Virus record (IMG/VR): IMGVR_UViG_3300025133_000079
Length of the DNA stretch: 64,000 nucleotides
Strand: one strand, 5' to 3'
Origin: an uncultured virus (IMG/VR IMGVR_UViG_3300025133_000079)
Taxonomy: Duplodnaviria; Heunggongvirae; Uroviricota; Caudoviricetes
Below the pieces are notes generated by a model. It had not been told where the DNA came from and made no database searches. It was given only the letters and a program-made list of their open reading frames with translations. The stretch's first letter is position 1. Each line of letters begins with the position of its first letter. The translations under genes were made by a program, and so were the position numbers. Below are positions 15,665 to 16,710 of the stretch, one piece after another.

Positions 15665-16710
15665 CTTGTGTTTCGCCTTGTCGTGGCGGGAAGGCCCAAC
15701 GGGAAACCGTTGCCAAGAAACACCGTTCATTGAAATAGCTTTGACAGAATCCACCGACGGCCCCTTTTCGGCCCGTTGCCTAGCATCCCCGTTCGCGGGC
15801 GAGTGTAGGGAGATTGACACCCTTTAACGGCAACTTGGTAATAACGGGAAAGAATCGCCACGGTGGAGGAATAAAGCGCGGATTGTAGCGCGGTTGCCTT
15901 GGCTTGGCCTTGGCCGCTCTGTTGATTTGCAAACCTTTCCCGTGTGGGCCGTCACTATTGTGCCGGGAAGCTTCACACGATACCGGGGAAGCCTAGCAAG
16001 TTGGCTGTAATTACTTCAAACGCTTGCGCTCTCCGCCATTGGCTTTGCCTTTGTTCACTTGTCACCGATGAAACGAGGCCCGGACGGGTTGCGCGTGGAT
16101 TGTGTCTTGCGCCGATTGTGATTTGAAATTTTCAGACTGCAAACGGTGGCAGTAGAGCTATGCCTTTGCCCGTCTCAGATTTTTAGCGGCTATTGAAAAG
16201 ATAGTCAGCATCAGAAAGGTCACGCAAGAATTGTCGGTTCTTTTCAGGATCAGCGATTGAGCGGGATGGGTACTCGAAGTGGGAAAGTTTAGCAGACCCA
16301 CGATGCTCGCCGTATAAACCAGCATAGGACATAAGTCGGCGGGACACTTGACCAAAGGATGGTTACTTGAGAAGCAGATCAGCTTACGCAAGAACTGTAT
16401 CGATAGCCTGGCGGGTCGTAAATTTCGCCAAGGGATACAATATTGCAAGCAAGTCACTTGTACCCTACCGAGCCAAGGTCACGAAGAGTGAGACGCAACA
16501 GGTAGATTGTAGCCTCACCAAATCCAGTCATTCCCAAGTAGATTTACACGCGAGAATTGTGTCTACTGGGGTAATGTAGGCTGGTGATACCTTACGGGTA
16601 TTCAAATACGCAACCACGGCCCATGTCAGAGATGGGTTTGTGGCTTCCCTCACATTGTGCTTGCCTTGACGAGGCGTGAGGGCCTGAATCCGCACAGAGT
16701 GGATCACTAA
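15665..16710 (+). ncRNA. Candidate long structured non-coding RNA or leader; family not identified
   Basis: No credible ORF; many abutting hairpins (see findings). Confidence 0.45.

Follow-up and report, generated by a model that had tools for sequence, protein, structure and literature searches.

A conserved candidate leader RNA at the head of a small-gene operon in uncultured marine temperate phages

Genomic context of the gene-free region

The window, by which is meant the whole 64-kb stretch of DNA that was analysed, has the gene content of a temperate-type tailed phage. Its DNA comes from marine sources, with the sequencing runs that contain it being labelled as marine metagenomes (20 runs listed, 16 studies, with no RNA run among those listed). 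A tyrosine integrase gene is located at 2012–3373, and from 5.3 kb on nearly all genes are carried on the plus strand. The region 5294–12999 encodes a Sak-type annealing protein, an exonuclease, an SSB, a PAPS-reductase-like protein, a DnaD-like initiator and a DnaB helicase, and the gene of an HU-like protein follows at 13819–14169. These replication genes lie directly upstream of a gap in the gene array, with the gene immediately preceding it being located at 15080–15613. On the 3′ side of the gap are many small ORFs, among them those of a methyltransferase and of proteins resembling the RusA resolvase and Mom, and this stretch is followed by a second recombinase, the large terminase (34304–35839), the structural genes and an ORF of 3151 aa. 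No tRNA genes were found in the 64-kb window using ARAGORN.

A comparison with 50,697 phage records gave no match for the gap (BLASTN) or for the 788-aa ORF at 36365–38731 (TBLASTN), and only distant matches (<36% identity) for the large terminase and for a 136-aa protein encoded downstream of the gap. It should also be noted that record G001, the nearest one, covers window 42536–64000 only.

The gap itself (15614–16731, 1.1 kb) contains only mechanical ORFs of 26–107 aa, none with a credible Pfam match. It had been called exceptional for so compact a genome in a preliminary description of the sequence, and the gap proved to be real. Short repeats in the same orientation run across the gap; no long-period tandem repeats were detected within it, and a self-BLAST returned only three short matches. 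Its upstream half is variable (15754–16046), with segments 15754–15886 and 15918–16046 skipped or replaced in some metagenome contigs. The joint 15753>15887 was seen in DNA contigs of runs X1 and X6 and the joint 15917>16047 in those of X1, with weak support in each case as the supporting side is just 30 letters long. The region 16047–17400, unlike this upstream half, was not variable in the population. It is in the downstream half of the gap that the preliminary description had placed a dense array of hairpins (16200–16710), all of whose listed arms were found to be present at their positions.

Relatives of the element and their alignment

Homologues of the element were sought using as an anchor the 136-aa protein encoded at 17289–17699 (Pfam Phage_L5_gp82). 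Among viral contigs, eight loci with a homologue of this protein were found, namely a twin of the window and seven others. The twin (L001, an IMG/VR contig) is identical to the window and starts at window position 15642. Of the seven others, only L007 contains part of the element; it is a truncated contig which starts exactly at the third copy of a 13-nt motif described below, and its first 17 bases equal window 16384–16400. A search of metagenome contigs with an alignment of the 136-aa protein gave 14 loci, four of which carry the element: a further twin (L020) and the divergent loci L021, L033 and L029. The relatives are far apart, their adjacent protein being 49–63% identical. L021 is laid out as the window is: its homologue of the upstream gene is followed by a hairpin and a gap of 1.2 kb, behind which come homologues of the first downstream protein (81 aa) and of the 136-aa protein. 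In L033 and L029 the element lies upstream of other small ORFs. L033 equals L007 through the 3′ domain of the element, after which the two diverge, and it extends L007 upstream. As L007 and L033 are near-duplicates in the 3′ domain, the number of independent lineages is four and not five.

Pattern searches were also done. A two-copy motif pattern was matched in viral contigs only by the twin of the window. Two patterns built on conserved islands of the element matched 69 and 25 stretches of viral contigs, of which the profile was matched by the twin only, and two further pattern-induced matches to the profile were weak (E 0.032). A three-island pattern matched a single stretch among genome contigs; it lies inside a gene of a Gemmatimonadales MAG, gave no profile match and was set aside as chance. 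Since the collections were scanned by protein anchors or by exact patterns, the family may exceed its present members. The linkage of the element to a Phage_L5_gp82-like gene and its operon is likewise partly an artefact, since the relatives were all found through that gene family.

Plain alignment with MAFFT gave conserved islands between variable spacers and left most hairpin arms out of register. The sequences were therefore re-aligned with Infernal to covariance models derived from the window, designated R1 (16510–16648, the 3′ domain), R2 (16366–16511, the 5′ core) and R3 (16215–16365, the 5′ subdomain). These models were built from the window alone, the structure being taken from the coordinates and imposed on a gap-free alignment with the identical twin. 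As a control, every 3′ partner of a pair was slid by 1–3 columns, a procedure that keeps the relatedness of the sequences. Alignments fitted to a window-derived structure favour that structure, a bias which the slid controls share only in part.

Conserved secondary structure of the 3′ domain

Model R1 matched L021 (E 4.8e-18), L033 (2.3e-11) and L029 (1.6e-10). Standard pairs occupied 94.4% of the pair cells of this domain (n = 161) compared with 32.7–42.3% in the slid controls, and 22 of its 36 pairs were changed on both sides compared with 2–5 after sliding. None of 500 shuffles reached the observed values, and double changes were contributed by all four helices.

The helix designated P5 is a long-range helix (16524–16529 with 16579–16584; 95.8% paired, double changes in two of its six pairs) which was also recovered, with compensatory changes, by RNAalifold on the plain MAFFT alignment. 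It encloses hairpin P6 (16533–16571), in which eight of 13 pairs are double changes and 96.2% of cells are paired. P6 has a conserved internal mismatch and carries the third motif copy (16548–16560) in its apical part, with the tip closed by four invariant pairs (columns 36–39 with 49–52). Hairpin P7 (16586–16602; seven pairs, five double changes, 100% paired) and hairpin P8 (16614–16643; ten pairs, seven double changes, 88% paired) follow, and both had been proposed beforehand and were retained in the alignment. P7 and P8 are separated by a conserved unpaired island (16603–16613) which was evident in the alignments. All of these helices lie on the plus strand.

A second, mostly unpaired island of invariant columns (16512–16523) precedes P5. 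RNAalifold on the plain MAFFT alignment placed long-range pairs that involve this island, and it may pair alternatively with 16582–16586 or form a pseudoknot, through 16512–16516, with the loop of hairpin P2 in the 5′ core. The preliminary description had proposed a hairpin across 16516–16587, and this was upheld in part. Its inner stem (16537–16567) covaries, and its outer stem (16516–16521 with 16582–16587) can be paired in every sequence (20 of 20 cells, one of them G-U) with zero covariation. The register which covaries, at two positions, is that of P5, and it overlaps the outer stem by three bases. A mixed form, consisting of the outer stem and the inner three covarying pairs of P5, is possible, and an alternation between the two registers is conceivable.

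The 5′ core, the 5′ subdomain and the 3′-terminal hairpins

Model R2 was matched less strongly (E values from 8.4e-4 to 4.5e-3). Pairing in the 5′ core reached 86.2% of cells against 28–38% after sliding, and eight of 32 pairs were double changes against 0–2. The small hairpin P1 (16372–16385, plus strand; four pairs, 87.5% paired, one double change) lies just 5′ of the second motif copy. The long bulged hairpin P2 (16396–16439, plus strand), previously proposed at 16397–16438, has a conserved apical loop, folds on its own and is kept in all four lineages; its two helices are 87.5% and 88.9% paired and carry three and one double changes, respectively. Further 3′, the claim of a stem-loop at 16465–16505 held for the inner stem, the short plus-strand hairpin P4b (16479–16491), which is 100% paired with two double changes where the alignment has letters, in two of the four rows. 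The outer stem (16465–16469 with 16501–16505) was left unsupported, having letters in the same number of rows and 80% of cells paired. A hairpin at 16444–16462 was found not to be conserved (77.8% paired, no double change).

The 5′ subdomain (16215–16365, plus strand) was found in the closest relative only. Model R3 matched L021 (E 0.0071) and gave no match in L033 or L029. This subdomain holds the first motif copy and hairpins at 16229–16258, 16279–16301, 16304–16346 and 16349–16365. In L021 helices 4 and 5 of the model carry two and three double changes, thus five in two hairpins. One of these hairpins is the GTGGG/CCCAC stem of the preliminary description (16279–16301), which keeps all five of its pairs in L021, with two double changes, and has no match in L033 or L029. 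The hairpin at 16229–16258 has no letters in L021.

On the other flank, the plus-strand hairpins P9 (16647–16682, with an inner hairpin) and P10 (16688–16704), together spanning 16647–16704, are shared with L021 only, and other hairpins occupy their place in L033 and L029. Both had been named beforehand, and in the comparison of the window with L021, which is the only one available for them, all 17 pairs were kept, with one double change in each hairpin. Seven differences separate the two sequences over 92 nt, and six of them keep a pair: four make up two compensatory pairs, one turns C-G into U-G, one lies in P8 and one is unpaired.

As judged from these alignments, the core common to all four lineages is about 16366–16648, flanked by lineage-specific extensions. 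The 16200–16710 extent first proposed for the array therefore stands, with respect to conservation in all lineages, for 16366–16648 and not for the whole stretch.

The 13-nt motif

A 13-nt motif is present in three exact plus-strand copies at 16222–16234, 16386–16398 and 16548–16560, spaced by 164 and 162 nt, and was found nowhere else in the 64 kb without mismatch. Copies with 0–1 mismatch lie at homologous places in L021, L029 and L033, and this includes homologues of the first copy in all three. The last bases of the second copy form the 5′ arm of P2, and this copy falls within the 17 bases that open L007. The three copies have no common structural context, and a position in a hairpin tip is seen for the third only. 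It was previously noted that the hexamer ACGCAA recurs at 16222, 16386, 16493 and 16608. All four occurrences are present; the first two begin the 13-nt motif, that at 16493 is not conserved and that at 16608 lies in the island between P7 and P8. The third copy of the full motif, at 16548, had been missed. Weaker motif-like sites were also detected further upstream (repeat families D2 and D6).

Strand, coding potential and known RNA families

Folding energy was of little use as a test of more-than-chance structure and was rejected as such, as it was not significant for the whole region on either strand. Folding of 16200–16731 gave z = −1.00 on the plus strand (19 of 100 shuffles as good) and z = −1.40 on the minus strand (7 of 100). 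For the 3′ domain the z-scores were −1.64 in the window and −2.52, −3.02 and −0.95 in the relatives, the energy being modest and the plus strand no better than the minus.

The strand was assigned from the pairs themselves. Across the four lineages, the 36 pairs gave 141 cells, with 115 being Watson-Crick, 19 G-U, none A-C and seven other; the pairs were 95.0% paired on the plus strand compared with 81.6% if read on the minus. The presence of 19 G-U and no A-C pairs indicates that the plus strand is the RNA, as had been suggested earlier from G-T pairs in the window.

No reading frame is common to all four lineages, translated similarity being found in several frames on both strands, and substitutions fell on the three codon positions without periodicity (104, 92 and 90). 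Small conserved peptides were rejected as an explanation on these grounds and for lack of a Pfam match in the gap. The strand and coding results together point to a plus-strand RNA and not to a peptide or a double-stranded DNA site.

A search of the whole window with Rfam 15 (4227 models) at gathering thresholds returned no match. At E values up to 10, the region 15500–16900 gave four weak matches, all on the minus strand and outside 16200–16710, and at E values up to 1 none was obtained in L021, L033 and L029. The earlier failure to match the array to a known family was thus confirmed, for the window as well as for its relatives. With the covariation in four lineages and the G-U to A-C imbalance, this supports the proposal of an undescribed structured non-coding RNA or leader on the plus strand; of the findings that had been named as counting against it, covariation proved to be present, and the region is not accounted for by any conserved small peptide.

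Position at the head of the downstream operon

The first downstream ORF (16732–16971, plus strand) encodes a 79-aa protein of no family and begins 27 nt after P10. In each of five arrangements the element stops a few tens of bases short of the first ORF, and this ORF differs: it encodes the 79-aa protein in the window and the 81-aa protein in L021 and is unrelated in L033, while the first ORF of L007 is the second ORF of L033 and that of L029 is a homologue (54% identity) of the third ORF of the window. As the first ORF varies between lineages, it is the head of the operon, and no gene in particular, to which the RNA is linked.

In none of the lineages was the element found to be separated from the ORF by a terminator or other 3′-end signal, and a consensus scan of 15600–17500 for terminator-like sites on the plus strand was negative, including between element and ORF. 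No conserved helix reaches into the 27 nt that separate P10 from the start codon at 16732. The expression platform of a riboswitch or attenuator leader, either a terminator or a helix over the RBS beside the sensing domain, was not recognised here. The RBS is paired in the minimum-energy fold of the window, and the two comparable sequences are identical there. A promoter scan upstream of the element gave nothing convincing.

A possible terminator on the plus strand, a hairpin with a short T run, follows the stop codon of the gene at 15080–15613 (15625–15653; centroid fold −15.3 kcal/mol, z −0.32). It is absent from the list of the consensus terminator scan, and its equivalent in L021 is a stronger hairpin (z −3.24). 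It is possible that this hairpin separates the element from the operon of the replication module.

Downstream, a strong plus-strand hairpin resembling an intrinsic terminator (17912–17943; 12 pairs followed by T5) lies 213 nt after the fourth small gene, and a second one in the same orientation is found at 23905–23931. L021 has a terminator-like hairpin of 13 pairs at the place equivalent to 17912–17943. In L007, no plus-strand terminator was found within the next 7.2 kb. The element is therefore not always accompanied by a terminator downstream, and this weakens a reading as antitermination.

Interpretation of the element

On the comparative evidence, the hairpin stretch is a real, conserved and uncatalogued folded RNA in four related marine phage lineages, and it is best read as an undescribed cis-acting structured leader RNA. 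The structured RNA would be encoded on the plus strand at about 16215–16704, as a long 5′ leader to the operon that starts at 16732, and is presumably transcribed together with this operon. Its core would begin with a small hairpin; a long hairpin with bulges and a conserved loop would come next, then a short hairpin and finally the 3′ domain, in which a long-range helix is predicted to enclose the hairpin that displays the 13-nt motif, with two more hairpins behind it. Occurring three times about 163 nt apart, the motif could provide binding sites for a factor. The RNA would act in cis on how the genes that follow are expressed: the leader would modify the transcribing RNA polymerase, either unaided or together with a factor bound at the three motif copies, and the modified polymerase would then read through downstream terminators such as that at 17912–17943. 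That the nascent leader acts in cis, most likely on transcription elongation by processive antitermination and possibly with a factor bound at the motif copies, is put forward tentatively, its probability being judged a little under even.

Several other explanations of the element were considered. It is rather unlikely that it is a stand-alone stable RNA of the ornate kind, cut from the leader or separately transcribed, that acts in trans or assembles into an RNA or RNA-protein particle and for which the position at the operon would be incidental. The conserved structure of several hundred nucleotides with many helices and the phage origin agree with this, the well conserved 3′ domain and less conserved 5′ part repeat the layout of GOLLD as given in the available part of the source (PMC12286853), and the conserved loops and unpaired islands could offer sites for tertiary or intermolecular contacts. 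However, no 3′-end signal separates the element from the ORF in any lineage, a leader is favoured by the way in which it always adjoins the first ORF, and the window has neither tRNA genes nor an Rfam match. A leader that titrates a protein or is regulated by one would account for three motif copies at conserved places in four lineages while their flanks diverge, for the third copy at the tip of a hairpin that four invariant pairs close and for the weaker motif-like sites upstream. A phage or host protein would here bind the 13-nt copies with effects on translation, on mRNA stability or through sequestration, and not on elongation. Three sites are nevertheless few for a sponge, the copies have no common structural context and no candidate RNA-binding protein was recognised among the neighbouring genes, and this explanation is regarded as unlikely.

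The short repeats in one orientation across the gap and the replication genes just upstream of it could mark an element that works as DNA. This might be an origin or a region of iterons, a site with DNA hairpins for single-strand initiation, or a boundary of recombination between phage modules. Two assemblies also break inside the gap (L001 at window 15642 and L007 at the third motif copy), and L033 ceases to be identical to L007 once the 3′ domain is passed. Such an element is held to be quite improbable, as covariation preserves pairing on one strand only (19 G-U pairs, none of A-C), nested helices of long range are retained, tandem iterons are missing from the gap and double-stranded protein-binding sites need no compensatory changes. 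The conserved multi-helix core with its invariant unpaired islands would also suit a self-processing RNA, either a ribozyme or an intron-like element of an undescribed class. This is very improbable given that Rfam returned no ribozyme or intron match (window 15500–16900 at E 10, relatives at E up to 1), that the element interrupts no gene and that no conserved context of a cleavage site was recognised. The least credible explanation, hardly to be entertained, is that of ordinary intergenic DNA with chance hairpins and with conservation due to recent common ancestry. It draws on the unremarkable folding z-scores and on the fact that relatedness alone can beat shuffle controls. The relatives are, however, 49–63% identical in the adjacent protein and yet show 94% pairing and 22 double changes against 2–5 in the slid controls, and the upstream half of the gap varies in the population whereas 16047–17400 does not.

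A broader proposal may be added. The element could be the first representative of a new class of large structured RNA encoded by phages, with a core of about 280–490 nt and three 13-nt signatures, heading the post-replication operon of uncultured marine temperate phages. The RNA machine would in that case be either a factor-independent processive antiterminator, several times the size of put and more elaborate, or an ornate RNA that forms a higher-order particle of the ROOL or GOLLD type. This is offered as a speculation that is doubtful at present.

Comparison with known RNA systems

It is rare, to our knowledge, for a large structured RNA to show strong covariation and belong to no catalogued family. 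The phage examples GOLLD and ROOL have come under intense structural study, with their function still open. They are often found near tRNA islands in phages or prophages, and a homo-oligomeric cage made of RNA only is a further mark of theirs. The element would add a candidate with a clear genomic role to test, being fixed at the head of an operon with terminators behind it, and its source is a marine phage group without a cultured relative, whose gene regulation is almost uncharted.

By analogy, GOLLD and ROOL are the nearest known RNAs in size and phage origin. They are likewise phage-borne, several hundred nucleotides long and built of many covarying helices, and a conserved 3′ region with a less conserved 5′ region is shared with GOLLD as described in the part of PMC12286853 that was available. 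Rfam profiles exist for both, according to that same part of the source (PMC12286853). The element differs from them in giving no Rfam match and in running straight into an ORF without a 3′-end signal. It also differs in that the window is devoid of tRNA genes, although the phage context itself is shared.

RNAs with protein-binding repeats are known in the form of the CsrB/RsmZ-type sponges, in which a short motif for binding recurs many times in loops or linkers. The element resembles these in having a short motif repeated within one structured RNA and differs in that there are three copies only, of 13 nt, with one in a hairpin tip.

A bipartite antitermination system consisting of an RNA and a protein partner is described for conjugative elements of Gram-positive bacteria in the accessible portion of PMC8191782. 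The likeness to this and to other leader-RNA antitermination systems lies in an RNA element that heads a mobile element's long operon and in the proposed passage of RNA polymerase through internal terminators; the difference, judged by description, is that no protein partner was recognised here.

The put RNAs of phage HK022 (putL and putR) may be considered the nearest functional analogue; they work in cis in processive antitermination, with a read-through of downstream terminators that needs no factor. They are about 70 nt long, consist of two stem-loops and lie 0–270 nt after a mapped promoter, according to the sections of PMC9378689 to hand. The element, compared by description and not by sequence, has a core of at least 280 nt and eight or more helices, and is thus four to seven times larger than the length of about 70 nt given in those sections (PMC9378689), which counts against a reading as antitermination. 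Should it nevertheless prove to be an antiterminator made of RNA only, a mechanism for which very few systems are known would be broadened. As with put, the element belongs to a temperate phage, lies in the sense orientation upstream of a long array of genes on the same strand with intrinsic terminators and is predicted to be a folded RNA with conserved stems near which no dedicated antiterminator protein was recognised.

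Variation around the structured RNA and its upstream gap

Among contigs of marine metagenome runs, two joints were found in the part of the gene-free gap (15614-16731) that precedes the conserved plus-strand structured RNA element. One connects 15753 to 15887 in contigs of two runs, skipping 15754-15886, and the other connects 15917 to 16047 in one run, skipping 15918-16046, with the sides of each joint being only 30 letters long. On the basis of these joints, the upstream half of the gap seems to be present within the population in shorter or replaced forms. By contrast, a 14.7-kb contig spans 16047-17400 with 0 differences from the window.

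Sequences that resemble the 13-nt motif in its 3′ half, but less closely than the true copies, were also observed 5′ of the structured part at 15876, 16093 and 16109, all in the same orientation as the motif, with that at 16093 being similar to an additional motif copy at position 220 of the divergent metagenome contig L033. The viral contig L007 (48.9 kb, classed as linear and 69% complete) has its first base exactly at the third motif copy. Its positions 1-17 correspond to 645-661 of L033, in which the element extends further upstream. The two contigs diverge 3′ of the element, at the first ORF, and this suggests, from sequence comparison, a module exchange at the boundary between the element and the first ORF.

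Genes flanking the gap

The gene upstream of the gap (15080-15613) was found in two versions in the marine run X1, with approximately 10% of positions differing across window positions 15060-15484 (22 differences in a 247-nt contig and 28 in a 169-nt contig). The presence of these two versions probably explains why L001, the twin contig of the window, starts at 15642. The C-terminal part of this 177-aa ORF is a Lys/Ala/Glu repeat (15506-15589) encoded by tandem repeats of 6, 18 and 24 nt. In run X6 this repeat reached a depth of approximately 57,000, a value which is meaningless because contigs of other organisms were attracted there. The intergenic stretch 5′ of the ORF (14890-14950) is conserved between the window and positions 1-60 of L021, the closest of the divergent contigs carrying the element. 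It contains a run of alternating A and T with two C-rich runs behind it, and could hold the promoter of the ORF.

Two overlapping minus-strand ORFs of 88 and 124 aa (14274-14850) lie between plus-strand genes and gave no family matches. They are located within the bin 14001-15000 (skew −0.333); no other bin of the window has a strongly negative GC skew.

Structural module and second recombinase

The structural module ends with a single plus-strand ORF of 3151 aa (53107-62562), for which no sequence match was detected in PHROG, Pfam or PDB; the same was true of the nearby large ORFs 36365-38731, 38736-40115, 40246-42195 and 48763-53122. A second tyrosine recombinase was identified on the plus strand at 32828-33679 (PHROG integrase family, E 8e-44), distant from the first integrase at 2012-3373 and immediately 5′ of the genes presumed to encode the small and large terminase.
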